Source: a virus
IMG/VR virus record: IMGVR_UViG_3300005454_000004
Coordinates: 1-39,144 of that record
Strand: one strand, 5' to 3'
DNA: 39,144 nt
Below the pieces are notes generated by a model. The model was not told the origin of the DNA and did no database searches. It saw nothing but the letters and a program-made list of their open reading frames with translations. Positions 51 through 34,648 of the stretch are shown here, in pieces. Position 1 is the first letter of the stretch. Each line of letters opens with the position of its first letter. The position numbers and the translations under genes were made by a program.

Positions 51-1355
51 CCCGCGCGCTACCCGATGGAGTGGATCCGCGCGGAGCGCGATCGCTTCCA
101 GGCCGACGGCATGCTGCAGGAATTCAAGCAGGCCTACATGCTGCAGGTGACCGACCCGGCGACCAAGCCCTTCAAGGAGGACATGCTCGCCGCGCGGGAT
201 ACCAGCCCCTGGGACTGGATGCCGCGGTTCGCGATCTACGACCCGGCGCGGACCTCGAACGAGAAGCGCACCCGCGAGCACCGGAAGAGCGACCGCTACG
301 GGAAGGTCGTGGTCTCGCGCATGGGCTCGCAGATCCTCGTCCACGAGTCGGGCGGGTTCTTCTGGAAGCCGAACGAGTTCATCGCCGAACTCTTCACGAT
401 GAACGAGAAGCACGCGCCCGCGAAGCTCGGGATCGAGAAGAATTCGCTCGACGACTGGCTGCTGCAGCCCATCCGCATCGAGATGCTGAAGCGCGGCGTG
501 TCGCTCCCGCTCATCCCGCTCTCGGCGCCGCAGGACCGCTCGAAGGAGGACTTCATCCTGGGCCTGCAGCCCTTCGCGGAGGCGCGCGACATCGTGCTCG
601 TGGGCGGGCGCGCGGCACACCCGCAGCTCGTGGCCGAGTGGGCGAACTTCCCGCAGGGCCCGCGCGACATCATGAACGCGCTCGCGTACAGTCTGCGCAT
701 GTTCTCGGGCCAGCCCATCTACGCCGACTTCGGCGGCGCCAACATCGGCGACGCGCCGAACCCCGCGCGCGGCGAGACGGTCTACGTGGGCTTTAACGCG
801 AGCCCGACCGACACGGCCTGCGTGGCGATCGTGCGCGAGGGCCGGCGCCTCGCGGTTGCCATGGACGCCGCGGCCGCGGGGCCCGACGCCGTGAAGTCGC
901 TCGTCTTCGAGCTGCGAACCGCCTTCCCGCTCGCCTCATTCTCGGTCTGGACGCCCGCGGAGCTGCACGACCAGTGGCAGCGGATCGCGACCGTGCCGCA
1001 GCTGCGCGCCGAGCGCGTGGTGGTCTACCGCGGCGATCACATCGCGCCTGCGCGCGGATGCCTCTCCGACCGGATGCGCACCGAGTGGCGCGGCAAGCGC
1101 CTCCTCACCGTCGACCGGCGCGCGCGCTTGACTCTCAACGCGCTCTCGACGGGCTACGCCGCGGCGGTCGAGCGCGGCGGACGCGTCGCGGGCGAGCCCG
1201 AGCAGGGGATCTCGCGCCTGGTGGGCGAGGCGATCGAGTGCGTCGCACACATGCTGGACCGGCAGCTCGAGGCCGAGGGCCTGCCGAAGGGCGCCAACCT
1301 GGGGACCACCCCCGGCGGCGCCACGTACGTGACCGCCCATCCGGGCAAGCGCTAA
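3..1355 (+). CDS. terL: Terminase large subunit, C-terminal part (continues from 38437..39144 across the circular join)
   Basis: The frame is open from nt 3 and is in frame with the last codon (tgg) of the window. High GC3. It lies directly upstream of the portal gene. The N-terminal part at the other window end carries the ATPase motifs. Confidence 0.85.
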   Translation, partial: PICDGDVDAPTTKSNWPARYPMEWIRAERDRFQADGMLQEFKQAYMLQVTDPATKPFKEDMLAARDTSPWDWMPRFAIYDPARTSNEKRTREHRKSDRYGKVVVSRMGSQILVHESGGFFWKPNEFIAELFTMNEKHAPAKLGIEKNSLDDWLLQPIRIEMLKRGVSLPLIPLSAPQDRSKEDFILGLQPFAEARDIVLVGGRAAHPQLVAEWANFPQGPRDIMNALAYSLRMFSGQPIYADFGGANIGDAPNPARGETVYVGFNASPTDTACVAIVREGRRLAVAMDAAAAGPDAVKSLVFELRTAFPLASFSVWTPAELHDQWQRIATVPQLRAERVVVYRGDHIAPARGCLSDRMRTEWRGKRLLTVDRRARLTLNALSTGYAAAVERGGRVAGEPEQGISRLVGEAIECVAHMLDRQLEAEGLPKGANLGTTPGGATYVTAHPGKR

Positions 1356-2037: not shown

Positions 2038-4239
2038 GTGGCGCGCATCGCGAAAAAATCCCCCGACAAACCCGACGAGCTGAAGAGCTCGACGGTCGAT
2101 AGCAAGGCTGCGCCCGACGCGCTCGCGACGGGCGACAAGCCCGAGAACTGGGCCGACAAGCCCGATTCCCCCGCCCACCAGGCCGCGAAGAAGCTCTACA
2201 AGCTGATCCTCAAGGGCTTCGAGAACCAGGCCGAGCAATCGGACCGGATCGAGGAATACTGGAACATCTACAACGCGCAGCCCGATGAGAACCTGCAGTA
2301 CACGGGGAACTCGCAGGGCTACATCCCGGCGGTGCGCGACTGCGTGAACGCGCGCGCGAAGCGGGTCCTGAAGCAGCTCTTCCCGGTGAACCACAAGCAC
2401 GTCGACGGCCTCTCGTCGGACGGCCGCGTGCCGAACCTGCAGCTCTCGCTCCTCGAGCACTACATCCGCAAGACCAAGCTCAAGGCCACGGTGCGCTCCG
2501 ATCTCATCGCGGGCGACGTGACCGGGCAGTGGTGCCTCATGATCGACTGGATGAAGAGCGAGCGGCGCGTGACGAAGCTCGTGCGCCGAAACCCGATCAT
2601 CGACGAGATCGACGGCGAGGACGTGTCCGATCTGGAGATCGAGGATCCGGGGGCCGATGAGGAGGAGGACACCGAGACCGAGGACGTGATCGACGAAGGT
2701 CCCGAGATCGTGGACTTCGCGGTCGAGGACCTCACGGTGATCCCGCCCACGTGCAACGACCTGCAGCGCGCGCAGGCGGCATGCGTGCGCCTTCGCCTCT
2801 CGGAAGCGCGCGTGAAGGAGATGGTCGACGAGGGTGTGTTCATCCTCCGCGAAGGCAGCGATCTCGACGACTACTGCAAGGGCAACTTCGGGAACCTCGA
2901 GAAGCGCAACCGCGAGAAGAAGCAGACCGAGGACGCGGGCGTGAAGACCCAGGGCACGAACAAGTACGCGCTCATCTTCATGGCCTACACGAAGCTCGAC
3001 CTCGGGAAGGGCGCGAAGGAATCCGCCGTCGTCTACTTCTCCGGGCCCGACGAGATCATCGGCATCATCAGGAACCCGCTGTGGAGCGGCAAGGTGCCGG
3101 TGATCTCGCAGCCGGTCGACCGCGTGAAGGGCTCGTTCTTCGGCAAGTCGAAGGTCGAGCCCGTGAAGTTCCTGCAGTGGCAGCTTTGCGACTTCTGGAA
3201 CATGGGCCAGGACTCGGCCATGTACTCGCTGCTGCCGATCTGGGCGGTCGACCCGCTCGCCGCTCCGCAGTGGGCGACGCTGGTGATGGGGCTCGCGGCG
3301 GTGTGGCCGGTCGACCCGAACAAGATCAAGCCCATGACGAGTCCGCAGCTGTGGAAGGACTCGGCGCAGATCTGCGACCTCATCAAGCGCCAGATCTGGG
3401 AGTCGATGGACGTGAACGAGATGATGATGGGCAAGCTCCCCGCGGGCCGGAAGAACAACCAGCTCATGGGCCAGATGCAGCAGGAGCAGTCGACCAACAT
3501 CAGCGACCACGCCGACCGCTACGAGGAGGAGATGTTGTCGCCCCTCGCGGAAATGCTCTTCGAGTTCGACCAGCAGTTCCGGGAAGACGAGGTGATGATC
3601 GAGTCGCGCGGCGAGATCGGCGTCGAGGCTTCGGTGAAGACCATCCCCGTGCAGCAGTGGGGCGAGCGCATCTTCTTCCGCTGGATCGGCTCGTCCTTCA
3701 TGACGAACATGCAGCGCATGCAGCAGCAGATCGCCTGGCTGAACGTGCTGAAGGGCATCCCGCCCCAGATGCTGGACGGCCGGCGCCTCAACCTGGCGCC
3801 CATCCTCGACAAGGGCACGGAGGACATCTTCGGGCCCGAGCTCGCGCCGAAGATCTTGGTCGACGAACGCAACATGTTCGTTGTCGATCCCGACACCGAG
3901 AACGAGATCCTGCACAACGGCATGACGGTGACCGTCCACGAGGCCGACGACGACCCGAAGCACATCCAGTCGCACATGAAGGCGGCGAGCCTCACCGGCG
4001 ACCCCGCGGGGCTTTACAAGGCCCACATGGCCGCGCACATGCAGGCGATGCAGGTGAAACGCGAGAAGCAGATGGCGGCGCAAATGCCCAAGGGCCAGCC
4101 GGGCGGACCCGGCGGCGCGGGCCCGGGTGTCGCCGGCGCGCCGCGGCCGGGCGCGCAACCAGGCGCCCCGCGCCCCGTGCAGAACCCCGCCGGCGCGATC
4201 CCGCAGGACAACATGGCCGGCGCACCAGGAAGGGGGTGA
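2038..4239 (+). CDS. Putative portal protein (733 aa)
   Basis: Large ORF just downstream of terL, with an acidic stretch (DLEIEDPGADEEEDTETEDV) and a Gly/Pro-rich C-terminal tail. Size and position are typical of portals. No sequence search was done. Confidence 0.7.
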   Translation: MARIAKKSPDKPDELKSSTVDSKAAPDALATGDKPENWADKPDSPAHQAAKKLYKLILKGFENQAEQSDRIEEYWNIYNAQPDENLQYTGNSQGYIPAVRDCVNARAKRVLKQLFPVNHKHVDGLSSDGRVPNLQLSLLEHYIRKTKLKATVRSDLIAGDVTGQWCLMIDWMKSERRVTKLVRRNPIIDEIDGEDVSDLEIEDPGADEEEDTETEDVIDEGPEIVDFAVEDLTVIPPTCNDLQRAQAACVRLRLSEARVKEMVDEGVFILREGSDLDDYCKGNFGNLEKRNREKKQTEDAGVKTQGTNKYALIFMAYTKLDLGKGAKESAVVYFSGPDEIIGIIRNPLWSGKVPVISQPVDRVKGSFFGKSKVEPVKFLQWQLCDFWNMGQDSAMYSLLPIWAVDPLAAPQWATLVMGLAAVWPVDPNKIKPMTSPQLWKDSAQICDLIKRQIWESMDVNEMMMGKLPAGRKNNQLMGQMQQEQSTNISDHADRYEEEMLSPLAEMLFEFDQQFREDEVMIESRGEIGVEASVKTIPVQQWGERIFFRWIGSSFMTNMQRMQQQIAWLNVLKGIPPQMLDGRRLNLAPILDKGTEDIFGPELAPKILVDERNMFVVDPDTENEILHNGMTVTVHEADDDPKHIQSHMKAASLTGDPAGLYKAHMAAHMQAMQVKREKQMAAQMPKGQPGGPGGAGPGVAGAPRPGAQPGAPRPVQNPAGAIPQDNMAGAPGRG

Positions 4240-4242
4240 TCC

Positions 4243-4461
4243 GTGGCACGAGCGAAGAAGCGCAAGGGCAAGCAGCTGGACGAGGCCGCGGCGATGCCCG
4301 TGGCCGACGATCGCTGGCGCGCGCGGGATGACTTGCACACGATCGAGCGCGCGCATGAGGTGGTGAGCGACAGCTCGCGCCTCAAGGCCGCGAAGTCGGA
4401 GGCGAAGCGCCAGAAGGAATCCCTCGACCGCATCGCGCGCCTGGAGGGCAAGAAGCTATGA
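4243..4461 (+). CDS. Hypothetical charged, helical protein (72 aa)
   Basis: High GC3. ATGA overlap with the next ORF indicates translational coupling. Confidence 0.6.
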   Translation: MARAKKRKGKQLDEAAAMPVADDRWRARDDLHTIERAHEVVSDSSRLKAAKSEAKRQKESLDRIARLEGKKL

Positions 4462-4628
4462 CCGGCCGCATCCCCGACCAGGCGGTCCTCGAGGCGTCCA
4501 TCCAGACCCTCGTCGAGCGCTTCGAGCGCGAGCACCAGGTCGAAGTGAGCTCGATCTGGGTGGAGCACCGCGTGCCCGCCGCGGTCGAGGTGACCGTCAC
4601 CGTGCGCCGCCGGGTGAAGGCCGCATGA
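4458..4628 (+). CDS. Hypothetical protein (56 aa; below the ORF-track length cutoff)
   Basis: Read by hand as MTGRIPDQAVLEASIQTLVERFEREHQVEVSSIWVEHRVPAAVEVTVTVRRRVKAA. ATGA overlaps at both ends. Confidence 0.5.
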   Translation: MTGRIPDQAVLEASIQTLVERFEREHQVEVSSIWVEHRVPAAVEVTVTVRRRVKAA

Positions 4629-5041
4629 AGATCATGGGCATCCCGGTCGTGTTCGATCCGCGGCTCACGCAGATGCCGGCGGTCTCGCGCGGCTTCTGGC
4701 CGTTGAAGCGGATCGTGGTGGGACCCCAGTGGTACGAGCTCACGCCCGAGGCGCGGGTGTCGGTTCTCTTCCACGAGGTTCACCACTGCCTCGCGTTTCA
4801 CCTCGAGGTGCGCTTGGCGATCCTGCCGCTCCTCTTCATCGCGCCGCGCTTCACGCGCCGCATCTGCCGCGAGCAGGAGCTCGCGTGCGACCGCTTCGCA
4901 GCCTCCCAAGGCTGGGGGCTGGAGCTCGCGCGGCTGCTCGAGCAGCTGCACGACCTACCGGAAAGCGACTTTTACCCGACATGCATCGAACGCGCGCGGA
5001 CCCTGCGCGCCCACCTGGAGGACCCATGTTCAAACCCCTGA
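4625..5041 (+). CDS. Minimal M48/M56-like zinc metallopeptidase (138 aa)
   Basis: HEVHHCLAFH (HExxH-x4-H), then a hydrophobic segment (LAILPLLFIAP), then REQELACDRFAA. This resembles the E-x3-A-D third-ligand motif of HtpX/BlaR1-type peptidases. Confidence 0.65.
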   Translation: MKIMGIPVVFDPRLTQMPAVSRGFWPLKRIVVGPQWYELTPEARVSVLFHEVHHCLAFHLEVRLAILPLLFIAPRFTRRICREQELACDRFAASQGWGLELARLLEQLHDLPESDFYPTCIERARTLRAHLEDPCSNP

Positions 5042-5436
5042 AACGCGCGTTCGCCGCAGTCCTCGCCGGCATCTTCCTGCTCGCCTCGAGCCTGGTACAG
5101 GCGGGCGCCTGCTGCTCGTCGTTCTCGATCTTCCCCGACACCACGCGGAACTTCTCGTCCAGCGTGCTGCTGCCGCCCACGTACACCGACGCGATCGTGC
5201 TGGTCGCCAACGTCTCGCAGACGCAGACCATCCCGACGGGAGCGACGTGGGTCGTCTTCAGCGGCAATTGCAACTTCTACGCTCTTACGGGAGCGTCGGC
5301 CGCCGTCCCCGGCGCCACCACTACCAACGGCAGCGCGGCGATGCAGAACCCTGCGGCGTGGAATATCACGGGCTTCACGCAGGTGACGGTGGTGGCACCG
5401 TCCGCGTGCGTCGTCACCTTGTCCTTCTACCTCTGA
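5026..5436 (+). CDS. Hypothetical beta-rich protein with a signal-peptide-like N-terminus (136 aa)
   Basis: Internal ATG of track ORF 4729..5436. N-terminus MFKPLKRAFAAVLAGIFLLASSLVQAGACC. The upstream extension is Arg/Pro/Ala shadow sequence overlapping the peptidase gene. Confidence 0.6.
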   Translation: MFKPLKRAFAAVLAGIFLLASSLVQAGACCSSFSIFPDTTRNFSSSVLLPPTYTDAIVLVANVSQTQTIPTGATWVVFSGNCNFYALTGASAAVPGATTTNGSAAMQNPAAWNITGFTQVTVVAPSACVVTLSFYL

Positions 5437-5443
5437 GGCCACG

Positions 5444-6268
5444 ATGAAGCGCTTCCTCGTATCGCTGTTCATCGCACTCTTCACGACCTGCACGGTCGCG
5501 CAGGTCCCGATCTACACGCGGCCCGCGGCGGCCTCCGGCATCGCCAGCATCACCGGCGGCAGCATCACCGGGGTCACGGGCGTTGCGACGAACCTCGGCG
5601 GCTCGGGCATTCCCATCATCGGGCTTTCGACGGGGTCGGTCGCCGCGAACGGCGCCATCAGCGGCATTACCGCGCTGCCGCTCGTCTATCCCGCGGCGTA
5701 CTGCTACTTCCCGGCGAACGCGCTCGCCACGGCGATCGCCGCGGGCTTCTACTACTGCACGTTCAGCACCACGACGGCCGGCACGGCATTCCTGAACCAG
5801 TGGAGCTCGGGGCTGCCCGTGATTCCATCGAGCCCGACGCCCGTCACGGACGGGAAGGGCGCGTACACGGGCGACACGACCGAAGAGTTCATGCCGAGCA
5901 TCGCCATTCCCGCGCTCGGGGTGAATAGCCAGCTGTATGTCGACACCACCATCGTTGCGACGAACAGCGCGGGATCCAAGTCGGTCAAGTTCCGCCACAG
6001 CGGCAGCGGCGGCACGATCCTCTTCACCAACGCCATCACCACGGCCCAGAGCCAGCGCTTGCTCGGCGTTTCGGCGAATGCGGGCTCCACGAGCTCGCAG
6101 AGCGTGTCGTTCTTCACCGTGAACCAGGCGGGCGCCGCGTTCAACGGCACGCCGGCCATCCCGACCGTGAATACCAGCGCGGCGACGACGGGCGTCCTGA
6201 GCCTGCAGCGCGGCACGGCAACCGACAACATCATCCTGTTCGCATGGTCAATTGGTTTGTCGCTCTAG
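5444..6268 (+). CDS. Hypothetical Thr/Ser/Gly/Ala-rich structural-type protein with a signal-like N-terminus (274 aa)
   Basis: N-terminus MKRFLVSLFIALFTTCTVAQ. The composition is typical of fibre or receptor-binding proteins. High GC3. Confidence 0.7.
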   Translation: MKRFLVSLFIALFTTCTVAQVPIYTRPAAASGIASITGGSITGVTGVATNLGGSGIPIIGLSTGSVAANGAISGITALPLVYPAAYCYFPANALATAIAAGFYYCTFSTTTAGTAFLNQWSSGLPVIPSSPTPVTDGKGAYTGDTTEEFMPSIAIPALGVNSQLYVDTTIVATNSAGSKSVKFRHSGSGGTILFTNAITTAQSQRLLGVSANAGSTSSQSVSFFTVNQAGAAFNGTPAIPTVNTSAATTGVLSLQRGTATDNIILFAWSIGLSL

Positions 6269-6888
6269 CCTTTGCGCTAGGAGCGTGGGGGGGCGGCGGC
6301 CCCACCCCGACGTCGCCCCTATCGGTATGGGTCGTCGAGGGCGACAGCCTGAGCGACAGCCTGATCTCGGACTACCCGGGGCTGTACCTCCCGAACGCTC
6401 GGCCAAGCGTTGCCGCGGTGGATTTCGCGGTGGCGGGCTCGACGCTGAACGATGCGATCGCGCGCCAGGCGACCGTCGACATGGTCATTACGACCAACCG
6501 GGATGCGCCCCGATTCATCTTTTCGGCGCTCATCGGGGGGAACGGATTTTGCAGCGCCGGCAGCCAGTGCCTCCTCGACCAGATCACCGCGCTCGCCACG
6601 TACTACGACGGGCGCCGCGCGGCGGGATTCAAGGTCGTTTGCATCACCTGGACGCCGCGGACAACGGCGCTATTCAATCCGGCGCGCAACCAGGTCAACG
6701 TCGCGATTCGCACGTGGCAGGGCACGCACTGCGACGCGATCGCCGACTTCGCGGCCGACCCGATCATGGGGCCGGACGCTGCCGCTTCCGACGTCTCGCT
6801 CTATTCGGATGGCACTCACCCGACGGCGCTGGGCCACAGTTACCTCGAGGCCGACATCCGCCCGGTCCTGAACGGATTGCTGCATTAG
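6244..6888 (+). CDS. SGNH/GDSL-family hydrolase (214 aa)
   Basis: Block I VVEGDSLSD (GDS-L with the Ser nucleophile), block III IGGNGF, and block V SDGTHPTALGH (DxxH). Confidence 0.8.
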   Translation: MVNWFVALAFALGAWGGGGPTPTSPLSVWVVEGDSLSDSLISDYPGLYLPNARPSVAAVDFAVAGSTLNDAIARQATVDMVITTNRDAPRFIFSALIGGNGFCSAGSQCLLDQITALATYYDGRRAAGFKVVCITWTPRTTALFNPARNQVNVAIRTWQGTHCDAIADFAADPIMGPDAAASDVSLYSDGTHPTALGHSYLEADIRPVLNGLLH

Positions 6889-6960: not shown

Positions 6961-7797
6961 ATGAAACAGAAAAAACTCGCTGCCCTGCTTTCCTCGTTCT
7001 TCTCCTTGGGCGTGGGCGCTCCGCTCACGAGCCTCCCCAGCATGATGCAGGTGAACGGCGCGCTGGTGGACCCGGGCGGGCTCATCTCGTTCCTGAACCA
7101 GATGAACGCGGCGAACACCGCCGCCGACGGGACGAACTTCCAGACCTCGGCGGGCGCGACGATCACGCTCACCTCGCTGCAGAACCTCACCCAGCGCCTC
7201 ACGAACGGCGGCGCGGTCACCGTCACCCTGGACTCGGCGTGGGCAATCGCCAACGCGATCCCGAACGCCTTCCAGAACCAGACCTTCCCGTTCACGATCA
7301 TCACCAACGCCGGCACCACGGTCGCGACGCCGACCCTCACCGGCTCGGGCGTGACGCTCTCGGGCACGACCACCGTGCTCGCCGCCGCGGCGCGCTGGTA
7401 TCAGGGACAGATCACCCAGATCGCGACCACGACCGGCGCGCCCGTCACCTCGGGCACGACCTTCACGTCGATCGCGCAGATCGGCTCGACGAACCGCTAC
7501 ACGGTGACCCTCGGCGTGAACGCGCTGGTCCCGGTGGTGGGCCAGGCGATCTACCTCAACGTCACGGCCGGCACGCTGCCCGCGGGCTGGTATCCGATCG
7601 ACCTCGTGAGCTCGGCCACCTCGTTCGTCTGCGTGCTGCCCCCGTCGGGCACCGCCTGGACCGCGACCGCCGCCACGATCCCGGGCACCGTCACCGTGCC
7701 GGTCTCGCAGTACCAGTCGGGCTACACCGGCATCTTCTCGCCGCTCATCACCATCACCGGCATGATGGCGACCGTCACCGCCACGATGTCGGTCTAA
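6961..7797 (+). CDS. Hypothetical virion-module protein (278 aa), Thr/Ala/Gly-rich, with the leader motif
   Basis: Strong RBS AAGGAG. N-terminus MKQKKLAALLSSFFSLGVGAP. High GC3. Confidence 0.7.
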   Translation: MKQKKLAALLSSFFSLGVGAPLTSLPSMMQVNGALVDPGGLISFLNQMNAANTAADGTNFQTSAGATITLTSLQNLTQRLTNGGAVTVTLDSAWAIANAIPNAFQNQTFPFTIITNAGTTVATPTLTGSGVTLSGTTTVLAAAARWYQGQITQIATTTGAPVTSGTTFTSIAQIGSTNRYTVTLGVNALVPVVGQAIYLNVTAGTLPAGWYPIDLVSSATSFVCVLPPSGTAWTATAATIPGTVTVPVSQYQSGYTGIFSPLITITGMMATVTATMSV

Positions 7798-7807: not shown

Positions 7808-8299
7808 ATGCGCGCCCTCACCCGCTGCCTGAATCTCCTGTGCCTCGGCACGCTGGCCCCGATCCCACCCGGGATCACCGCCGACAAGTCTGCGGGGTGG
7901 GGCCTCTTCGCGCTGATGAACAACGCGAACGTGTACTCCGCGTTCTTCGTGACCCTCGCCACCGCGGGCACGAACAGCACGCTGACCGCCGCGCAGGCGA
8001 TCGCGGGGGCGCTGCGTCTCACCACCGGCGCGTCGGGCGGCTTCACGATCACGCTGCCGTCCACCGTGGCGCTCCTCGCCGCCCTCGGGCCCACGATCCC
8101 CACGGATGGCTCGTTCACGAAGTTCATCCACATCCTGAACGACGGCATCGGGCAGACCGGCACGCTCACCGCAGGTGACGCGAGCACCACGATCACCGGC
8201 ACCGCCACCATCGCCACCAACACCCGCCGCATGTTCGCCATGACCGTGACCGGCCCGTCGACCATCACGTTCCAGAACTTCGGCTCCCAGGCCATCTAG
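7808..8299 (+). CDS. Hypothetical virion-module protein (163 aa), with the leader motif
   Basis: N-terminus MRALTRCLNLLCLGTLAP. High GC3. It lies directly upstream of the scaffold gene. Confidence 0.65.
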   Translation: MRALTRCLNLLCLGTLAPIPPGITADKSAGWGLFALMNNANVYSAFFVTLATAGTNSTLTAAQAIAGALRLTTGASGGFTITLPSTVALLAALGPTIPTDGSFTKFIHILNDGIGQTGTLTAGDASTTITGTATIATNTRRMFAMTVTGPSTITFQNFGSQAI

Positions 8300-8302: not shown

Positions 8303-9091
8303 ATGCTCATCTTCAAGCTGCTCGCTTCCTACCTCACCCTCGGCCACACCCCGCCTGCGGACGACAATCCCGATGCCGGTGCCGGTGCCGGCGGCGATGG
8401 CGCGGAGCCGCCCGACAAGCCGGACGGCGCTGGCGCGGACGGCGACGACGTCGATCCCGACCTCTCGGCGCTGGACGACGACGACGAGCCCGATGCGGCC
8501 GAGCAGCTCGCGACCGAGCGCGCGGCGCGCGCCAAGGCGGAGCGCGAGCTGGCGGAATCCCGCTCCCGATTCGAGGCCGAGCAGCGCGCGCGCTCCCAGC
8601 CCCCGCAGCCCTCGCAGGAAGAGCGGATCCGGGCCGCAGAAGAAGCTCGCCTCGCCGACCCGCAGATCTCCGACCAGGAGCGCTGGCAGATCGAGGCCAA
8701 TCGGACGCTCCGCCAGAACCACCAAGCCTCCCAGCAGGCCCTCTTCCAGTCGCGCGAGATCGCCGACAAGGCCGAGTACGAGCGCCTGTGCGGCTCGAAC
8801 CCGCTTGCGAAGAAGTACGCCACGCGGGTCGAGGAGAAGCTCACCGAGATCCGCCGCGGCGGCCAGAACGTGGAGCGCAAGTTCGTCCTCAAGCTGCTGA
8901 TCGGCGATGACCTCGTGGAGGGACGCGTGAAGAGTTCGAAGAAGAAAGAACCGGGCACCGGCACCGAGCCGGCGGCCGGAACGACCGTTCCTCGCGGCAA
9001 GCCCGCGATGGCGCGCAGCGATGTCCGCGGCCGCGCCGGCAACTCCGAGCGCGACAAGCGCCGGGCACGACTCGACGGACAACTCATCTGA
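8303..9091 (+). CDS. Putative scaffolding protein (262 aa)
   Basis: Immediately upstream of the major capsid gene. Very acidic N-terminal region, long charged helical segments (ERAARAKAERELAESRSRFEAEQRA) and a basic C-terminus. The only Met in the N-terminal region is at 8303. Confidence 0.6.
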   Translation: MLIFKLLASYLTLGHTPPADDNPDAGAGAGGDGAEPPDKPDGAGADGDDVDPDLSALDDDDEPDAAEQLATERAARAKAERELAESRSRFEAEQRARSQPPQPSQEERIRAAEEARLADPQISDQERWQIEANRTLRQNHQASQQALFQSREIADKAEYERLCGSNPLAKKYATRVEEKLTEIRRGGQNVERKFVLKLLIGDDLVEGRVKSSKKKEPGTGTEPAAGTTVPRGKPAMARSDVRGRAGNSERDKRRARLDGQLI

Positions 9092-9101: not shown

Positions 9102-10514
9102 ATGAAAAAAGCCCTGACCCTGATCCTCGGTTTCCTGACCCTGGGCGTGGTGAACGCCGCCGCGAGCTTCACCGCGGACGTCGAGGCCTTCATCCAGGAA
9201 GAAGTCGAGCCGCTCGCGCGCCGCCAACTGGTCGCCTACCAGTTCGGCAAGCCGCTGCACCTCGACGTGAACCGCGGAACCACGTACACGGCTTCGCGCT
9301 ACCAGCGACTGCCGCTCCCCTTCGCGCAGCTGCAGGAAGGCGTCGCCCCCTCGGGCTCGGCGATGACGCTCTTCCAGGTGTCCGCGACCGCCCAGCAGTG
9401 GGGCGACTGCGTGATCATCACCGACGTCGCGAACCTCACGATCAAGCACCCGCTCTTCCAGCAGGCGATCCAGCTGGTCTCGCTGCAGATGCCCGAGACC
9501 TTCGAGCGCAACACGTTCAACACGCTGCTCGCCGCGAACCAGGTGAACTACGCCAACGGCCGCGCGAGCCGCGCCGCGATCGTCGCCACCGACGTGATGA
9601 CCCCGCACGAGTCGAACAAGGTCTACGGCTCGCTCGTGACCTACGGCGCGCCGCGCTTCAACGGCGACGAGCGCGAGGACATGATGATCGAGGCGGGCGC
9701 CTACCGCGATCCCTCGAAGTCCCCGGCGGTGATGCAGCACTACGTCGGCATCATCCACCCGCTCGCCGCGCAGGACATGCGCGAGAACGCGCAGGTGAAC
9801 ACCGCCTGGTCGTTCTCCGACATCAACCGGCTCTACAACAACGAGCTGGGCGCCTTCGGCGGGATCCGCTGGGTCGAGTCGAACATGGTCCCGTACTGGA
9901 CCGGCAACGCGCTGGTGAGCGGCACCGCGTCCGCCGTCGGCGGGGCGCTCGCGACCTCGGCGACCTACAACATCATCGTGACGGCCGCACCGGCCCTCAC
10001 CTCGGTGGAGCAGCAGATCTACCAGGTGTCCGGCAACATCAGCGTGACGGGCCCGACCGGCTCGATCTCGGTGACGCTGCCCACGCGCGCCGGCTACGTG
10101 TTCAACGTGTACATCGGCACGTCGGCCAGCCCGACCAACCTCGCGCTGTGCTCGGCGGGTCCCGCCACGGGTCCGCTCGCCGGCCAGGCCACCCAGCTGC
10201 CCTCGGGCGCGACGGTGGTCCTCACGGGTATCGGCGCCTCGCAGACCCCGCCCGCCGCGCCCGCGACCGGCGTCACGGTCTTCCCGACGTTCGTGATCGG
10301 GAACCAGAGCTACGGCCAGGTGATCCTCGAGAACCCCGAGTTCCACTACCTCACCGGGGCCGACAAGAGCGATCGCCTGAACCAGACCCGCGTCGTGTCG
10401 TGGAAGGCGTTCTACGGCTCGATCATCCTCAACCAGGCCTTCCTCGCGCGCATCGAGCATTCGAGCGCGTTCTCGCCGGGCTTCTCGGCCGGGACGATGG
10501 CGGACCTCTCGTAA
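9102..10514 (+). CDS. Major capsid protein, N4-gp56-like HK97-fold family (470 aa)
   Basis: ATG preceded by GAGGTGG. The size, the position after the scaffold and my recollection of this family's sequences support the call. No search was run. Confidence 0.8.
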   Translation: MKKALTLILGFLTLGVVNAAASFTADVEAFIQEEVEPLARRQLVAYQFGKPLHLDVNRGTTYTASRYQRLPLPFAQLQEGVAPSGSAMTLFQVSATAQQWGDCVIITDVANLTIKHPLFQQAIQLVSLQMPETFERNTFNTLLAANQVNYANGRASRAAIVATDVMTPHESNKVYGSLVTYGAPRFNGDEREDMMIEAGAYRDPSKSPAVMQHYVGIIHPLAAQDMRENAQVNTAWSFSDINRLYNNELGAFGGIRWVESNMVPYWTGNALVSGTASAVGGALATSATYNIIVTAAPALTSVEQQIYQVSGNISVTGPTGSISVTLPTRAGYVFNVYIGTSASPTNLALCSAGPATGPLAGQATQLPSGATVVLTGIGASQTPPAAPATGVTVFPTFVIGNQSYGQVILENPEFHYLTGADKSDRLNQTRVVSWKAFYGSIILNQAFLARIEHSSAFSPGFSAGTMADLS

Positions 10515-10527
10515 CCAGGAGTAGCTG

Positions 10528-11121
10528 ATGACCAAGAAGGCCACGGGCGGCGCCACGCCGCCCGGTGTTTCTCCGGAGCAGCACATCGAGATCGCGTCGA
10601 CCACCGGCGCGAAAGCGAGCGACGTGAACAAGCTGCTCGCCGAGATCGAAGAGCTCAAGGCGAAGCTGCAGCTCTCGGAGGAACAGCGCAGCGAGGCCGA
10701 GGCGGCCGCGCTCGCGATGGCCGAGGCGCAGGGCGCGCTCATGCAGCGCGAGATCCGCGAGGTGCCGACCGGGAAGTTCGTGACGGTGAAGCGCGCGGTC
10801 GACCCGAAGACCGGCAAGCCCTCGTACCGCGTCGCGGGCTACAAGGATGACGGCCGCGAGATCCTGAAGCCGGTCTTTCACGACTTCAAGCTCCCGACCT
10901 ACTTCTACAAGGTCGACATGCCGCCCGTCGGCGGCGTGGACCTCAAAATCAACGACGTCTCGTTCTACCACGGCGTGGTGTACGAGCTCGACATCGACAC
11001 GCTCCGCAGCGTGAAGGAGATGGTCTATCGTCTCTGGGACCACGACCGCAGCATCCACGGCTCCGACGAGAATTTCTACCGGAAGCCCCAGGAGACGACC
11101 CTCACCGGCGCGAGGCGCTGA
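10528..11121 (+). CDS. Hypothetical head-associated protein (197 aa) with an N-terminal coiled coil
   Basis: High GC3. It follows the capsid gene, and its stop overlaps the next start. Confidence 0.7.
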   Translation: MTKKATGGATPPGVSPEQHIEIASTTGAKASDVNKLLAEIEELKAKLQLSEEQRSEAEAAALAMAEAQGALMQREIREVPTGKFVTVKRAVDPKTGKPSYRVAGYKDDGREILKPVFHDFKLPTYFYKVDMPPVGGVDLKINDVSFYHGVVYELDIDTLRSVKEMVYRLWDHDRSIHGSDENFYRKPQETTLTGARR

Positions 11122-11559: not shown

Positions 11560-12774
11560 GTGCAAACCGCCCAGCAGATCTGTCTGCTCGCTTCCACGGT
11601 CGCCAAGGGCGGGACCGGCATGGTCGCGACCGCCGGCCAGTTCCTGAACCTCACGCTTCAGGACCTCAAGCTCAACCGCCAGCTCAAGATCAACCGCGTC
11701 ACGCAGACCCTCAACGTGCCCGCGGGCTCGAACGGCCCGTTCACGCTCGAGACGGACTACCTTCGGACGTACGACATGTTCTACCCGCTCCAAGGGCCGA
11801 ACGGCATGACGCAGTTCCTCACGCCGATCACCATGGAGCAGTATGACGAGGAGTGGAAGAACCCGTCGGTCTCGAACTTCCCCTACGAGTTCGCCACCGA
11901 CCTCTCGACGCAGGCGAAGCTCGCGACCGCGACGGTGATCCCGACGGGCACGGTGGGATCGCTCACGGTAACGGCGAGCGGTTCGGGTTTCACGTCCTTT
12001 CCCGCCCTCGGCTTCTCGGGTGGCGGCGGCACGGGCGCCGCCGGCTCGCCGCACATGGGGTTTTCATTCGGCGGGGTCAACAACGGCGGCGCCGGCTACG
12101 TCGTCGGAGACGTGTTGACGTTGGTCGGTGGCACCTTCACGCGTCCCGCGAAGATCCTGGTGCGCACCGTCGGCGGCGGTGGCTCGGTTTCCAATCTTGT
12201 GATCGTCGACACCGGCGACTACACGGCGCTCCCTGCGGGGCTCGGCGTCTCGATTATCACCACCGGCGGAACCGGCAACGGCATGCTCTTCGCGTGGCTC
12301 GAGATGCTGATCTCCTCGGCCGTCGTGACGAACGCGGGCGCGAATTACACGTCGGCCCCGACGGTGACCGTGACCGGCGGCGCCGGCACCGGCGCGCACG
12401 TGACGGCGGCCATCTCCGCAGGCTCGACGGTCCTCGGCTCCGGCCAGCTCTACATCTACCCGCAGTCGTCGGGCGCGCTCGCGATCACGCATCGGTACAT
12501 GCGCGACCAGCCCGATCTCGTGAACCCGGAATCGAGCTCCGAGGTTCCGTGGTTCCCTCACCAGCAGTACCTCATCCACCAGGTCGCCGCGATGATGATG
12601 GGGATCTCGGGCGACGACCGGCAGGCGAACTTCCTCGCCCAGGCCGAGACCATGCTGCGCCCGTTCCTCATCATGGAAGGCGACGAGCAGCAGACCGTGC
12701 GCTCGATCCGCCTGGACCCCCGCCACTTCAAGTCGAACCGGGGCCTGCGGCCGACGAAGGTCAATCCGTACTAG
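11560..12774 (+). CDS. Putative head-tail adaptor / tail-tubular-A-like protein with inserted Gly-rich repeat domains (404 aa)
   Basis: GTG start. Two repeat units of the type NxGxGYxxxPxVxxxGGxGxGAxxxA. The position after the head genes is the basis for the functional label, which is tentative. Confidence 0.55.
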   Translation: MQTAQQICLLASTVAKGGTGMVATAGQFLNLTLQDLKLNRQLKINRVTQTLNVPAGSNGPFTLETDYLRTYDMFYPLQGPNGMTQFLTPITMEQYDEEWKNPSVSNFPYEFATDLSTQAKLATATVIPTGTVGSLTVTASGSGFTSFPALGFSGGGGTGAAGSPHMGFSFGGVNNGGAGYVVGDVLTLVGGTFTRPAKILVRTVGGGGSVSNLVIVDTGDYTALPAGLGVSIITTGGTGNGMLFAWLEMLISSAVVTNAGANYTSAPTVTVTGGAGTGAHVTAAISAGSTVLGSGQLYIYPQSSGALAITHRYMRDQPDLVNPESSSEVPWFPHQQYLIHQVAAMMMGISGDDRQANFLAQAETMLRPFLIMEGDEQQTVRSIRLDPRHFKSNRGLRPTKVNPY

Positions 12775-12783: not shown

Positions 12784-14403
12784 ATGATCCCCCAGAGCCG
12801 CCCGATCCGCTTCACCGCGAAAGGACTCACGGACGCCTTCGACGCGACCGACGAGTTCAAGGGCGCGTGCCAGTCGCTCTCGAACCTCATCTTCGACCAG
12901 TCCAATCCGGAGCTGGTGATCCCGCGCCCGGGCGTGCAGCAGACCGGCGCGATCCCGAATAGCGGCTTCGTCTCGACCCATGTAACCGTCGGCACGCGCA
13001 TCTACGGGATGGTGGCGTCGGCGGCTTTCGCCGGCCACGACGAGCCGTTCTGCTACGACACCAGCACGACGTCTTTCGTGCCGATCACGGGCGTGACGGC
13101 CGCGAACACGCCGACGTCCCCGATCTCGGTCCTCTCGGACTGGACCCCGCCCACCATCGCGTCGGTGGGCGTGTACCTCGTCGTGACGCACCCGGGCTTC
13201 AACGGCACGGGCACGCTCTTCTTCGGCCTGATCGACCTCTCGAACCCGGCGATTCCGATCTGGAGCTCGGCGAACTGCACGACCAACCCGCTCACGGCGG
13301 TGCCGAAGGCAGTCGCGAACCTGAATAACCGCGCCTACTTCGCGGTAAAGAACCAAGTGCAATTCAGCGACGTGCTGAACCCGAAGGTGCGCACGAACGC
13401 GACCCAGGCGCTCACGATCTCCGACACCGAGGACATCAACGCGCTCTCGGGCCTGCCTGTTCAGACCACGAGCTCGGGCGTGGTGGGCGCGCTCGTGATC
13501 TGGAAGACCTCGCAACTGTGGCAGGTGACGGGCGATCCCACGACGAACGACCTCGCCGAGAACTTCATCTCGCTCACCGTCGGCACGCTCTCGCCGCGCA
13601 CGATCGCGCAATCACCCGCGGGCGTCTATTTCATCTCGACGTCGGGTCCGTACTTCATCGACCCGCTGGGCACGCTGCGGCCGCTCACCGTGCGCGTGGA
13701 TAGCGCCGAGCCCGACGTGCAGCTGCCGTTCATCAACGCGACGCGGCCCTCACGCTGGGCGGGCGCCTACGCCTCGTCCATCTACCGGGTCTGTGGTCCC
13801 GCCGAGATCGACGGCACGGAGGTGACGCAGGACTACTGGTTCGACGAGCACCGCCGACGCTGGAGTGGGCCGCACACGTTCGCCTACGACTGCGCGAGCA
13901 CGATGAAGGGCTTCTTCATCCTCTCGTCCTATCTGCATGGCGGCGTCCTGTGCTCGAGCGACGTCGTGCCTAAGCTCTCGACCGTCTATACCGACCTCGG
14001 GGCTACGTACACCGTGGACCTCCAATCGTCGACCTTCCCGAAGACCGGCGACATGTGCATGAAGCAGGTGGTGGAGTCGCAGATCGAGCTGGGCGGCTCC
14101 TCGGTCACGTACACGATCACGGCCGAGGACGAGGCTGGCAACGTGCTGGACAGCGTGACGATCACCACGCCCGCGAGCAACGTCCCGGTGTGGGGCGGCG
14201 GCGCCGTGTGGGGCGATGGGACCCTCTGGACCGGCGCGCGCAGCCAGCCACCGCTCACCTATCCCGTCCCGTGGACGAAGCCCCTCGTCTTCGAGAAGCT
14301 GCAGCTGCACATCACGGCGCCCGTGAGCTCGTCGCTCAAGATCGGGACGTTCTTCGCGCGCTACCAACAGACCGGCTACATGACCCCAGGACCCACGCCA
14401 TGA
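12784..14403 (+). CDS. Putative tail (nozzle / tubular-B-like) protein (539 aa)
   Basis: Large beta-rich ORF between the adaptor-like and fibre-like genes. High GC3. The function is inferred from position only. Confidence 0.55.
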   Translation: MIPQSRPIRFTAKGLTDAFDATDEFKGACQSLSNLIFDQSNPELVIPRPGVQQTGAIPNSGFVSTHVTVGTRIYGMVASAAFAGHDEPFCYDTSTTSFVPITGVTAANTPTSPISVLSDWTPPTIASVGVYLVVTHPGFNGTGTLFFGLIDLSNPAIPIWSSANCTTNPLTAVPKAVANLNNRAYFAVKNQVQFSDVLNPKVRTNATQALTISDTEDINALSGLPVQTTSSGVVGALVIWKTSQLWQVTGDPTTNDLAENFISLTVGTLSPRTIAQSPAGVYFISTSGPYFIDPLGTLRPLTVRVDSAEPDVQLPFINATRPSRWAGAYASSIYRVCGPAEIDGTEVTQDYWFDEHRRRWSGPHTFAYDCASTMKGFFILSSYLHGGVLCSSDVVPKLSTVYTDLGATYTVDLQSSTFPKTGDMCMKQVVESQIELGGSSVTYTITAEDEAGNVLDSVTITTPASNVPVWGGGAVWGDGTLWTGARSQPPLTYPVPWTKPLVFEKLQLHITAPVSSSLKIGTFFARYQQTGYMTPGPTP

Positions 14404-14969
14404 AAACGCTCGCCGCACTTCGCCAGTTCCTCACGCTCGGCGTGATCATCGGGGCGCTGCCCAGCACGATCTCCAACGGGAATGCGGTCGACGCGATCCC
14501 GGTGATGAACGACCTGAACTTCATCGTGGCGCAGGTGAACGCGAACGCGGCGGCGGCCTCCTCGGTCCCGGCCTTCACGAACGTGACGTCCTTCACGCCG
14601 ACGCTTTCCTTCGGCGGCTCGAGCACGGGCATCACCTACCTCATCCAGACCGCGGCCTACGTGAAGATCGCCACCATGGTGCTCTTCACGATCGACATCT
14701 TCCTCACGAGCAAGGGCGCGCAGGTTGGGGCCGCCTCGGTGGGCGGGTTGCCGTTCGCCTCGAGCGGGAGCTTTCCGCCTGGCAGCGCGCCGACGGTCAC
14801 CATCCTCACCCAGAACGTGACCTTCGCCGCGGGCTACATCGTCGGGCTTCTGAGCGGTTCGAGCATCTCGATCATCAACCCCGTGACGGCCGCCTCCTTC
14901 AACACGCTCACGAACGTGGCGTTCGCGAACAACTCCGAGCTCATCATCACGGGCATGTACTCGACCTAA
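14400..14969 (+). CDS. Tail-fibre-like protein (189 aa), with the leader motif
   Basis: ATGA overlap with the previous gene. SNGNAVDAIPVMNDLNFIVAQVNANA resembles the conserved N-terminal segment of many phage fibre proteins. N-terminus MKTLAALRQFLTLGVIIG. Confidence 0.65.
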   Translation: MKTLAALRQFLTLGVIIGALPSTISNGNAVDAIPVMNDLNFIVAQVNANAAAASSVPAFTNVTSFTPTLSFGGSSTGITYLIQTAAYVKIATMVLFTIDIFLTSKGAQVGAASVGGLPFASSGSFPPGSAPTVTILTQNVTFAAGYIVGLLSGSSISIINPVTAASFNTLTNVAFANNSELIITGMYST

Positions 14970-18389: not shown

Positions 18390-20017
18390 GCCTACAGGCC
18401 GACTGGGATGCCGCGGTTCCCGTGGGCGTGAAGCCCGGCGGCGATCTCGCTTCGCAGTGGGAGCAGGCGACGCCGGTCAAGATCCCGACGAAGTCGGCCG
18501 CGGCACCGAAGGAGGAAAACCCGCGTTCGGCGAAGAACCTCGTGGGCGCCGCGATCGAGCCCGGCATGTCGCTTGCGTCCGGCGCCGTCGCGGGTCCGGC
18601 CTCGGGCCTCGCCGGTATCGCGGGCGCGGTGCTGCCGGGACCGCCCGGGCAGGGCGCGCGCTGGGCCGAGAACGTCGGCCAGGGCCTCACCTACCAGCCG
18701 CGCACCACCGGCGGACGCAACGCGATGGAGGCGATCAGCTATCCGTTCCGCAAGGTGAGCGAGGGCGCGAACGCCGCCGGCGAGCGTATCGCCGACGCGA
18801 CCGGCTCCCCGGCGCTCGGTGCCGGCGTCAACACCGCGATCCAGAGCATCCCGCAGCTCGTGGGCGCGAAGGGCGCGCAATTGCTCAAGAAGCCGCCCGC
18901 GCCGAAGCTGGATCCGGACGTGAAGACGCTCATCGACCGCGGCGTGAAGGTCACCCCGGGCCAGATCGTGCCGAAGCTCAAGCGCGCGGAGGAAGCGGCG
19001 CAGAGCATCCCGTTCGCGGGCGACTTCGTGAAAGACGCCCACGGTCGCGCGGTGGAGTCGTTCAACCGCGCCGGCTGGAACGACGCGCTCAAGGCCGCGG
19101 GCGAGAAAGAGATGCCCGCGACGGTGAAGACCGGCAACCAGGCCTCGGCGTACGTGAAGGAGCGCCTGGGCGACCGGTACGAGGAACTGCTCGGCAAGAT
19201 GGTCGGCCGTCTCGACAATGCGCCCCCGAAGAATGCTCTGCCGGCTCCGGGCCAACTCGGTCAGCCGCCGAGGCCTTCGCTGCGCCAGGAGCTTGACCAG
19301 CTGCTGGCCCTCGCGAAACAGGACGGCGGTCTGCCGCCGCGCGAGATGCGCCAGCTGCGGCGCATCGTCGACAAGGAGATCAAGGCCAAGTTCGACAAGA
19401 ATGGCGCGGCGCCGGGCGACACGCTGAAGGCCATCCAGGAGACGCTGCGCAAGGAAGAGGGCGAGTTCCGCACGGGCGGGCCCTACGAACGCAAGCTCGC
19501 CGACGCGATCAAGGAAGCCGACGCGGCCGTGCGCCGGATGGTACGCGAGGCGAACCCGAAGCACGCTGCCGAGCTCGACAAGATCGACGCCGGCTACGCC
19601 CGCTTCAAGATCGCGCAGCGCGCCGCGGGATCGGTCGGCAACCAGGAGGGAGTCGTCAAGCCCTCGGCCTATGACCGCTCGGTGCGAACCAGCGACCGCT
19701 CGAAGGACCACGCCCGCTACTCCGAGGGCAAGGCCCTGCAGCAGGACCTGTCGGGCGCCGGCAAGCGCGTCCTCTCGGACACGCTGCCCGATTCGGGCAC
19801 GCCGTTCCGGATCTCGCTCATGCACGCCCTCACCAACCCGAAGGCGCTCGCCGCGATGGGACTCGCCGGTATCCCGACCGCGATGCTCTACAGCCCGATG
19901 GGCATCCAGCTGATGCAGCGCATGCTCACCCGACCGCCAGCCGCGGGCCGCGCGGGCGCGATCGCCGCGCCGATCGGTGCCGCGCAGTACGGCCAACTTC
20001 CCCCGCCGCCGCAGTGA
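18386..20017 (+). CDS. Putative internal virion / ejection protein (543 aa)
   Basis: TTG start overlapping the previous stop (TTGA), so the start is uncertain. High GC3 throughout. Confidence 0.65.
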   Translation: MSLQADWDAAVPVGVKPGGDLASQWEQATPVKIPTKSAAAPKEENPRSAKNLVGAAIEPGMSLASGAVAGPASGLAGIAGAVLPGPPGQGARWAENVGQGLTYQPRTTGGRNAMEAISYPFRKVSEGANAAGERIADATGSPALGAGVNTAIQSIPQLVGAKGAQLLKKPPAPKLDPDVKTLIDRGVKVTPGQIVPKLKRAEEAAQSIPFAGDFVKDAHGRAVESFNRAGWNDALKAAGEKEMPATVKTGNQASAYVKERLGDRYEELLGKMVGRLDNAPPKNALPAPGQLGQPPRPSLRQELDQLLALAKQDGGLPPREMRQLRRIVDKEIKAKFDKNGAAPGDTLKAIQETLRKEEGEFRTGGPYERKLADAIKEADAAVRRMVREANPKHAAELDKIDAGYARFKIAQRAAGSVGNQEGVVKPSAYDRSVRTSDRSKDHARYSEGKALQQDLSGAGKRVLSDTLPDSGTPFRISLMHALTNPKALAAMGLAGIPTAMLYSPMGIQLMQRMLTRPPAAGRAGAIAAPIGAAQYGQLPPPPQ

Positions 20018-20018
20018 G

Positions 20019-33904: not shown

Positions 33905-34273
33905 CTAGGGGCAATTGGCGACGCAGCGGCGCTCGAGGCGCCATCCCTGCTCGGCGAGGCACCCGGAATAAGCGCCGTTGCCGGCCTCTCGCGCGGCGAC
34001 ATCACCGGAGGTGGTGATGGAGTAGGGCGACGCCGCTCGCTTGGCGCGCTCCTGGTCCTGGGCCTGAGCTCGCGCCTGGTCGGCGGCGGTGCGCGCACGC
34101 GGTGCACAGACCGCGCGGGCCTGCTCGAAGGGCATCGCGGGCGAAGCGGTGAAGGGAACGGGGTGCGTCTCGAAGCGTTGCGCGGTCGCGCACGCCGAGA
34201 GGGAAACGAGGGCTACTGCGGCGGTTTGCCGTAGTGCCCGAGCTCTTCCGCGGCCTGCCGGATGGTGGCCCAT
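33905..34273 (-). CDS. Lipoprotein (about 122 aa) downstream of the repressor-like gene and overlapping it
   Basis: Basic n-region RGRARALR, then TAAVALVSLSAC (lipobox LSAC). High GC3 from the signal peptide onward. The only available start (ATG 34273) overlaps the XRE gene by 61 nt. Confidence 0.5.
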   Translation of the reverse strand: MGHHPAGRGRARALRQTAAVALVSLSACATAQRFETHPVPFTASPAMPFEQARAVCAPRARTAADQARAQAQDQERAKRAASPYSITTSGDVAAREAGNGAYSGCLAEQGWRLERRCVANCP

Positions 34274-34554: not shown

Positions 34555-34578
34555 GGCGGCAGGGTAGCGAGCGATCAC

Positions 34579-34641
34579 GGACATGTGTGTCTTGTCGCTC
34601 GATCCCGACGGCTTGACGACAAGACATTTTTGTCTTACCGT
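34579..34641. promoter_or_regulatory. Divergent switch region: two operators plus a rightward TTGACG-17-TACCGT promoter
   Basis: GGACAtgtgTGTCT (34579-34592). AAGACAttttTGTCTT (34621-34636) lies exactly in the spacer between TTGACG (34613-34618) and TACCGT (34636-34641). The ATG at 34649 is only 7 nt after the -10. Confidence 0.6.
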
Positions 34642-34648
34642 GCGCTGC

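Follow-up and report, generated by a model that had tools for sequence, protein, structure and literature searches.

A candidate virion-maturation metalloprotease of the M48 type in the head module of a clade of temperate phages

The window analysed here, the whole 39,144-nucleotide stretch of the IMG/VR virus record IMGVR_UViG_3300005454_000004, is a nearly complete temperate phage genome (~39 kb, 67% G+C). Between its portal and major capsid genes it carries a plus-strand gene (4625..5041) whose predicted product of 138 amino acids (aa) is, with high confidence, an M48-type metallopeptidase and a core component of the head module. On the reading favoured here, to which a probability of about 0.55 is assigned, the phage clade of the window matures its virions with a phage-encoded minimal M48 zinc metalloprotease, not with a serine protease. 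This enzyme would recognise a propeptide of 12-20 aa on the capsid, scaffold and other late proteins, and enzyme and motif would form a co-evolving module that was gained once and never split. Judged from the sequences, the odds are somewhat better than even that the protease removes these leaders as a virion-maturation metalloprotease, the full chain being taken together. To our knowledge, every protease so far characterised that matures the capsid of a tailed phage or herpesvirus is a serine protease, and these enzymes have a small number of related folds. If the favoured reading is right, the phage enzyme would bring a new catalytic class to this known role, and proteolytic maturation would have arisen independently here.

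The protease gene and its family

The protease gene and the open reading frames (ORFs) upstream of it are as follows (labels such as L002 or P0046 are handles used in this analysis):

2038..4239, plus strand: portal protein of 733 aa (phrog_332, phrog_1216; 71% identical to the portal of L002)
4243..4461, plus strand: lysine-rich ORF of 72 aa, non-core, ATGA-coupled, with homologues in just 3 loci including the window
4458..4628, plus strand: ORF of 56 aa, non-core, ATGA-coupled to the protease gene, found in 2 loci only (the window and L001)
4625..5041, plus strand: predicted minimal M48-type (gluzincin) zinc metallopeptidase of 138 aa, assigned from the ORF, its motifs, the family profile and a structure model

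The product of 4625..5041 opens with MKIMGIPV. Its translation bears out what an initial annotation, made from the DNA letters, had read in it, namely an HExxH-x4-H motif (HEVHH at residues 50-54, followed by H59), a hydrophobic segment (LAILPLLFIAP, 11 residues, at 64-74) and the sequence REQELACDRFAA, which occupies residues 82-93 and contains ELACD at 85-89. The Kyte-Doolittle maximum over 19 residues, at residues 55-73, is 1.93. The end of the portal ORF at 4239 is followed by a GTG start at 4243, which opens the 72-aa ORF; ATGA overlaps then join the 72-aa and 56-aa ORFs (4458-4461) and the 56-aa ORF and the protease gene (4625-4628). The ATGA-coupled chain described in the initial annotation is thus present, but the protease is not its last member, since the next gene starts with an ATG at 5026 and overlaps the protease gene by 16 nucleotides (nt). 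Likewise, the gene does lie downstream of the portal gene but not directly after it, the 72-aa and 56-aa ORFs being interposed. In P0046, the homologue of the 72-aa ORF is fused or frameshifted to the protease. As had been noted, no further protease-like gene is visible: none was found among the larger window ORFs scanned with Pfam and PHROGs.

As a single query, the window protein gives sub-threshold Pfam matches to DUF2201_N (E 0.004) and M56 (E 0.34), no PHROGs match above threshold and, with phmmer against the PDB, noise only. Word-index homologue searches returned 2 and then 7 proteins, the closest of which (66% identical, in L001; JGI Ga0642624_24188) bears the automatic JGI name 'beta-lactamase regulating signal transducer with metallopeptidase domain'. 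The portal gene of L001 is split over several frames and other frameshifts are present, suggesting an assembly rich in errors or an element in decay; the L001 gene calls are unreliable, e.g. a 391-aa 'protein' in which the end of the portal is joined to the 56-aa ORF.

With a two-sequence profile, an exhaustive HMMER search at a cut-off of E<=1e-3 recovered 229 cluster representatives, of which 137 reached E<=1e-10; most are 110-180 aa long. Among the 150 representatives listed by this search, HE..H is present in 149, and E..[AC]D follows about 33 residues further on in nearly all, or about 53 residues in members with a hydrophobic insert. Over the alignment of 150 sequences, H50, H54 and R123 never vary, and E51, H59, R63, E85, A88, D89, G96 and P118 are at least 90% conserved. 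The HExxH motif is therefore not a chance occurrence, because 229 representatives share the family and 149 of 150 keep the motif; its conservation in homologues had been named beforehand as a point on which the assignment would stand or fall.

The family profile matched Ste24p (E 4.8e-11) and ZMPSTE24 (E 1.6e-10) best among PDB proteins, and these alignments cover all three M48 motif blocks, namely HExxHxxxxH, ExxAD and (H/Y)PxxxxR. Weaker matches were, in order, BlaR1 (E 0.008), HtpX, an M48 peptidase, BepA and proabylysin (E 0.1). In the family-profile alignment, H50, E51 and H54 correspond to ZMPSTE24 H335, E336 and H339, and E85 to E415, the third zinc ligand of that enzyme; Y117-P118...R123 aligns with ZMPSTE24 H459-P...R465 and with HPTLAER of Ste24p. 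Pfam Peptidase_M48 matches 125 of the 150 members at E<0.01 (best 9.8e-14) and M56 matches 16, while NCBIfam holds no dedicated model for the family and gives weak HtpX matches only. The relatives outscore the window protein, which is itself detectable only via the profile, and the whole family is therefore placed, by sequence, in the M48 superfamily. In the proposed active enzyme, zinc would be coordinated by H50 and H54 of HExxH together with E85 of ExxAD, E51 would act as catalytic base, and the remainder of the site would be supplied by Y117 and R123 of the (H/Y)PxxxxR block.

An AlphaFold model built with a 150-sequence alignment (predicted local distance difference test, pLDDT, 96.5; predicted template modelling score, pTM, 0.89) comprises a three-stranded sheet, an active-site helix (41-56) that holds HExxH, a glutamate helix (74-94) that holds E85 and a C-terminal helix (120-132). 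In Foldseek searches of the PDB, the top ranks were taken by Ste24p, ZMPSTE24, BlaR1 and an M48 peptidase, with query template modelling (TM) scores of 0.55-0.59. Proabylysin (4JIU) aligned over 52 columns, about a third of the model, at a TM-score of 0.30. In a library of viral structures the best matches were small M48-like proteins, as yet uncharacterised, from giant viruses and uncultured phages, with IrrE-like phage proteins among the weaker ones. The M48/M56-type assignment made in the initial annotation is thereby borne out: the family profile scores best on Ste24p and ZMPSTE24 and is placed in M48, a protease family, and the best PDB matches of the model, closest to Ste24p, ZMPSTE24 and BlaR1, are all M48/M56 metallopeptidases. 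On the sequence and model evidence, the window protein would be a minimal M48 form, descended from M48 enzymes and probably working like them.

Three protease architectures occur within the one phage clade, in which family members measure 109-170 aa. In the first, HExxHxxxxH and ExxAD are separated by a hydrophobic hairpin of two helices, about 50 residues long, as in HtpX and Ste24; in the second, to which the window protease belongs, a short hydrophobic link takes up about 20 residues; and the third (109-116 aa) is devoid of the first strand or strands and of any hydrophobic segment, with a Kyte-Doolittle maximum of 0.78. Examples of these architectures are provided by L012, P0058, P0070, P0073, P0085, P0100 and P0133, and by lineage-B loci such as L064 and L089; lineage B, which carries the LFPG-type leaders described below, has the shorter protease form.

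Several lineage-A proteases also end in Pro-Cys sequences (PCSNP, PCSNA, ASPC, VSPC, APCSSD). In the window protease, PCSN spans residues 134-137 (positions 5027..5038), where the pLDDT falls to 79, and Pro-Cys C-termini are likewise found in the proteases of P0002, P0004, P0046, L002 and L021. It is pure speculation that this C-terminal cysteine could serve as a cysteine switch or latency element, as in other zincins.

N-terminal leaders of the late proteins and their distribution

Peptides of one kind are found at the N-termini of five late (virion-module) proteins of the window. The leaders are listed below with the capsid gene; a caret marks the predicted junction:

6961..7011, plus strand: leader of the 278-aa protein (gene 6961..7797), MKQKKLAALLSSFFSLG^V
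7808..7849, plus strand: leader of the 163-aa protein (gene 7808..8299), MRALTRCLNLLCLG^T
8303..8344, plus strand: leader of the acidic scaffold-like protein (gene 8303..9091), MLIFKLLASYLTLG^HTPPADD, then an acidic region
9102..10514, plus strand: major capsid protein gene (phrog_1357, E 1e-36; start at ATG 9102, not 9099)
9102..9146, plus strand: leader of the major capsid protein, MKKALTLILGFLTLG^VVNAAASFTADVE, the first residues after the junction being VVN
14400..14441, plus strand: leader of the 189-aa protein (gene 14400..14969), MKTLAALRQFLTLG^VIIGALP

These leaders are 12-20 aa long and are built of a Met, a few basic residues, a hydrophobic or amphipathic helix and then (F/Y/L)(L/F)x(L/P)G, with a net charge of +1 to +3 and an end of the form ...(L/P)-G^(V/I). 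The strict motif [FYL][LF][TSC]LG occurs 7 times in the 78,284 six-frame positions of the window, and 5 of these 7 occurrences lie 9-12 residues past the start codons of plus-strand late genes. The codons of the strict motif differ among the five leaders, so that it is the peptide, rather than the RNA, that is constrained; an origin of the shared motif in a nucleotide-level signal was rejected for the same reason.

Across relatives, the capsid leader is variable, whereas the sequence after it, F[TQ]ADVE.YIQEEVEPLARRQL, is almost invariant. Within genomes, the motif changes in parallel. In lineage A the capsid carries FLTLG and the other proteins YLTLG, FFSLG or LLCLG; in lineage B the capsid carries LFPGV and the other proteins LLFPGI or ALFPAI; in L021 FLFPRV on the capsid is accompanied by YLFPQV, FLYPAI and FVWPRV, and in L075 FLTLPV is accompanied by FLTLPA and FLQLPV. 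When capsid motifs were scored against the leaders of the other families, pairs from one genome scored higher than pairs from different genomes for the scaffold family (mean score 21.9 versus 14.5), the 278-aa family (16.4 versus 11.6) and the 163-aa family (17.8 versus 12.4), with a permutation p<=2e-4 for each of the three families, a value to be read with the caveat of shared phylogeny. Such parallel change in unrelated proteins points to one common, fast-evolving recognition partner.

The distribution of the protease was followed in a first scan, in which viral contigs were searched with the window capsid protein (224 relatives, of which 80 loci were kept), and in further scans anchored on a divergent capsid protein (L004) and on an outgroup capsid protein. 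Four groups were defined from these capsid scans, namely clade 1 (window-like), clade 2 (L004-like), clade 3 and distant outgroups, and the presence of a leader was judged on the N-termini of the capsid orthologues. The protease hidden Markov model (HMM) matched in all 47 first-scan loci in which the portal C-terminus and the capsid gene are both present; in each of them the protease lies between portal and capsid on the same strand, and it usually abuts the portal gene. All 6 prophage or genome loci carry the protease (5 in Paraburkholderia/Burkholderia and 1 in an uncultured betaproteobacterial metagenome-assembled genome), in the portal-to-capsid position in the 5 loci with a portal; L094, without the portal region, has the protease as well. 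In clade 2 the protease is present throughout, directly upstream of scaffold and capsid, which is the classical protease position.

In clades 1 and 2, protease and leaders are always both present. In clade 3, by contrast, in which the capsid is about 60% identical to that of L004, the gene order is TerL-portal-scaffold-capsid with nothing intervening, and no protease HMM match and no HExxH...ExxAD ORF (by regular expression) were found in the head-module loci. Clade-3 capsids start with M(A/P)TN..SF.(A/S)DIE.YIQ, which aligns residue for residue with the sequence past the Gly of PG^VTNQSTSFTADVE, and clade-3 scaffolds begin directly in the acidic region, without a leader. In the 189-aa family, lineage A has ..LTLG^VIIGALP, while lineage B has M(A/P/S)IIG(T/A)LP, which starts one residue after the Gly; these leaderless lineage-B orthologues sit in protease-positive genomes. 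Because the 189-aa family has both forms, the leader behaves like a module that can be gained or lost by single proteins. The more distant outgroups have neither protease nor leader. In neighbour-joining trees of capsid and portal, clades 1 and 2 group together and clade 3 is basal, so that the leader-protease module was probably gained once and never split afterwards.

Two further N-terminal sequences were observed. In L158, the capsid gene (9354..10865; compare 9977..11353 in L159) has a 93-nt in-frame insertion right after the ATG, which adds KKLFATIFSFFEEQLYRLTMQFMERSGGICY ahead of the normal ATN... start; the locus contains no M48-like gene. In the outgroup genome L088 (MW202477.1), a putative scaffold (91..807, minus strand) starts with MFRTRLLHSIMMLAPENGEGGGG, a short, hydrophobic, leader-like sequence; no M48-like gene is present anywhere in this 41.5-kb genome, and its capsid protein has no leader.

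Other features of the window include:

within the window: C-terminal part of TerL (PHROGs match)
11560..12774, plus strand: protein with a SU10-type adaptor domain (domain match)
25244..26281, minus strand: integrase
34213..34824, minus strand: helix-turn-helix (HTH) repressor-like regulator
37629..38258, plus strand: DnaJ-domain protein

The integrase, the HTH regulator, the DnaJ-domain and SU10-type adaptor proteins and the prophages L089-L093 together identify the window as a temperate podovirus-like phage of Burkholderiaceae. The phage clade is uncultured, temperate and podovirus-like, and has prophage members in the genomes of Paraburkholderia and Burkholderia. Among GenBank phages, blastn and tblastn yielded no cultured relative, the nearest phages being uncultured Manatee Spring phages (portal identity 25%, capsid identity 26-30%).

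Conservation in relatives does not extend to the 72-aa and 56-aa ORFs or to the genes at 5026..6888. The latter region is a variable accessory island between the protease gene and the conserved 278-aa gene, and is absent from most relatives. It encodes proteins of 136 aa (5026..5436) and 274 aa (5444..6268) with N-termini resembling classical signal peptides, and a GDSL/SGNH hydrolase (6244..6888; Pfam Lipase_GDSL_2, E 4e-6, under the curated cut-off) with a hydrophobic N-terminus that includes 'FALGA'. At the end of the plus-strand late block, a 463-aa protein (19977..21368) gives weak, sub-threshold ATP-grasp/GARS-like matches (Pfam GARS_C 1e-7, GARS_A 2e-5); an ATP-grasp-like gene is an unusual companion of virion genes.

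Candidate role and alternative explanations

On the favoured reading, the protease would cut the short N-terminal leaders off the five late proteins, the cut falling after Gly with Val, Ile or Ala at P1', and the product N-termini would be identical to those encoded directly by leaderless relatives. That the protease cuts the leaders, at which bond and when, is what we infer from the sequences compared here. In thermolysin-like zincins the S1' pocket usually prefers a hydrophobic P1' residue, and the hydrophobic P1' of the predicted cut would be consistent with this preference. The leaders could serve to delay assembly, to co-localise the head proteins or to tether proteins to a membrane, and the last option would fit the membrane hairpin present in some enzyme variants. 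The leader could also be regarded as a portable tag that is added to or dropped from individual virion proteins, as the 189-aa family suggests. The initial annotation had put forward a prohead or leader protease; the position in the head module, the co-occurrence with leaders and the leaderless orthologues lend support to this proposal at the level of sequence. The main evidence comes from the leaders, to which that annotation had not drawn attention.

Several observations weigh against this reading. Taken alone, the window protein scores 14.6 bits with Pfam Peptidase_M48, under the gathering threshold of 20.3. The cellular location is ambiguous, as a membrane-like hairpin is present in some relatives and absent from the 109-116 aa forms. 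The protease also diverges far faster than its neighbours: it is 29% identical to its orthologue in L002 and 32% identical to that in L004, against 71% and 54% for the portal and 86% and 62% for the capsid (the scaffold-like protein reaches 48% and 33%), a pattern that would also fit a host-directed or arms-race role. The association between protease and leaders amounts to one ancestral gain, in clades 1 and 2, and so to one phylogenetic event followed by strict co-retention. Finally, the capsid of L158, a protease-less clade-3 phage, has an unrelated N-terminal extension of 31 aa.

The fast divergence would fit the main alternative, in which an active M48-like protease is aimed at host proteins or at a defence or exclusion system and is placed in the late operon for timing only, the leaders being unrelated to it and kept or removed otherwise (e.g. 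as an assembly or membrane-association helix). This explanation, considered unlikely, would also account for the high diversity of the protease inside a clade whose capsids are at least 75% identical and for the membrane-hairpin inserts of some members, which recall HtpX and Ste24, enzymes that act on membrane proteins; the single ancestral gain behind the leader association is compatible with it too. However, the protease is kept in every clade 1 and clade 2 genome at the head-module position, in three protein families the leaderless orthologues begin exactly at the leader junction, and the parallel evolution of the leaders calls for a phage-encoded, fast-evolving common partner. As the leaders themselves are fast-evolving, a fast-evolving protease is accounted for without a host target.

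The leaders might instead be Sec-type signal peptides or membrane anchors cut by the host signal peptidase, the M48-like protein clearing leftover peptides or jammed precursors. The basic N-terminus followed by a hydrophobic stretch, with a net charge of +1 to +3, is what such peptides would look like; the accessory proteins at 5026..5436 and 5444..6268 resemble true signal-peptide proteins, and the M48 enzymes HtpX and Ste24, which work in membrane and translocon quality control, offer a parallel for the clearing role. This possibility is nevertheless given little credence, as a cytoplasmically assembled capsid and an acidic scaffold cannot be exported and the motif varies with the phage lineage, unlike a generic host signal. 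Signal peptidase I sites at the leader junctions were rejected, because many junctions violate the -1/-3 small-residue rule or are without a c-region (LFPG^V with Phe at -3, LFPR^V, LTLP^V); with this rule broken and with scaffold leaders such as MNKLLKKLLGLLFPG forming lysine-interrupted amphipathic helices, the host signal peptidase is unlikely to make the cut. An ImmA/IrrE-like (M78) anti-repressor protease that steers the lysogeny switch is the least probable of the alternatives, and hardly credible. The phage does have an integrase and an HTH repressor-like gene, Peptidase_M78 weakly matches 4 of the 150 family members, and IrrE-like phage proteins appear among the weaker structural matches; but the protease is encoded about 29 kb away from the HTH gene, within the late structural operon, its three motif blocks and its best sequence and structure matches are those of M48, and its distribution follows that of the leaders.

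Sister phages with similar capsids and with or without the leader-protease module provide a natural comparison in which the purpose of the propeptide is testable. The predictions are explicit (a recognition motif and a cut site at Gly^Val/Ile), and several of the lysogens, which include Paraburkholderia phenoliruptrix LMG 22037 (L089), Burkholderia semiarida CCRMBC74 (L091), Paraburkholderia sp. BL25I1N1 (L092) and P. tropica LMG 22274 (L093), are cultured strains. With about 110-140 residues, the enzyme would rank among the smallest catalytic domains of the M48 type and might be useful as a soluble model for the chemistry of Ste24, HtpX and BlaR1, and perhaps as a sequence-specific protease for tag removal.

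Comparison with known systems

The phage protease resembles the M48 enzymes (Ste24p/ZMPSTE24, HtpX, BepA, Oma1; PF01435) in having all three motif blocks and in giving its best profile and structural matches with them, and the His at +5 (HExxHxxxxH) is a Ste24 feature also found in the phage protein. It differs from them in size (109-170 aa versus about 250-480), in its location in a head module and in its proposed substrates, the leaders of virion proteins. Furthermore, the transmembrane insert of Ste24 (about 80 residues) is reduced to about 20 residues in the window protein, which has no evident membrane-spanning helix. Ste24, HtpX and Oma1 are membrane-associated and periplasmic M48 members such as BepA are soluble, so that the membrane trait is not strictly defining.

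With the M56 family (BlaR1/MecR1) the phage protein shares the gluzincin core, BlaR1 being among both the profile and the structural matches. M56 proteins consist of a four-helix transmembrane metalloprotease domain and an extracellular penicillin-binding sensor, and have a BlaI/MecI partner. In contrast, the phage protease has neither sensor domain nor transmembrane bundle and matches M56 less well than M48; no BlaI-like neighbour gene was found in Pfam and PHROGs scans of the window ORFs. The minigluzincins (proabylysin, projannalysin), soluble archaeal scaffolds of about 100 residues that resemble M48/M56 catalytic domains, are likewise stand-alone minimal M48/M56-like domains of similar size with HExxH and a Glu ligand. 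However, the similarity of the phage protease to proabylysin is marginal in profile and structure, and its Ste24-type (H/Y)PxxxxR block and His at +5 point to M48 proper. We know of no phage or morphogenetic context for minigluzincins.

The prohead proteases (HK97 gp4, T4 gp21, lambda C, assemblin) have in common with the window protease a gene position between portal and scaffold/capsid. T4 gp21 acts on gp23, gp22 and proteins with a capsid-targeting sequence, which parallels the proposed removal of N-terminal propeptides from capsid, scaffold and minor proteins. Those enzymes are serine proteases with assemblin-like or ClpP-like folds, unlike the predicted zinc metalloprotease described here. 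Indeed, Pfam, PHROGs, PDB and structural searches gave no match of the protease to a prohead protease fold (assemblin/HK97 gp4/T4 gp21-like or ClpP/S49-like), and all matches of the family in the Pfam, PDB and structure searches were to zinc metallopeptidases. The proposed propeptide, of just 12-20 residues with a Gly-Val/Ile junction, is a further difference. T4 head assembly is covered in reviews (PMC9958956, PMC9026906). Full-text literature searches returned no paper in which the maturation of a phage capsid is tied to an M48 or other metalloprotease.

Functionally, the closest analogue is the staphylococcal phage 80alpha, in which a short leader of capsid and scaffold is removed by the host protease Prp (PMC5744158). 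There, one dedicated protease acts on a leader common to capsid and scaffold, as is proposed for the phage of the window. Prp, however, is a host cysteine protease and the 80alpha leader mimics ribosomal protein L27, whereas the protease proposed here is phage-encoded and of the M48 type, and the leader motif co-varies with the phage lineage.

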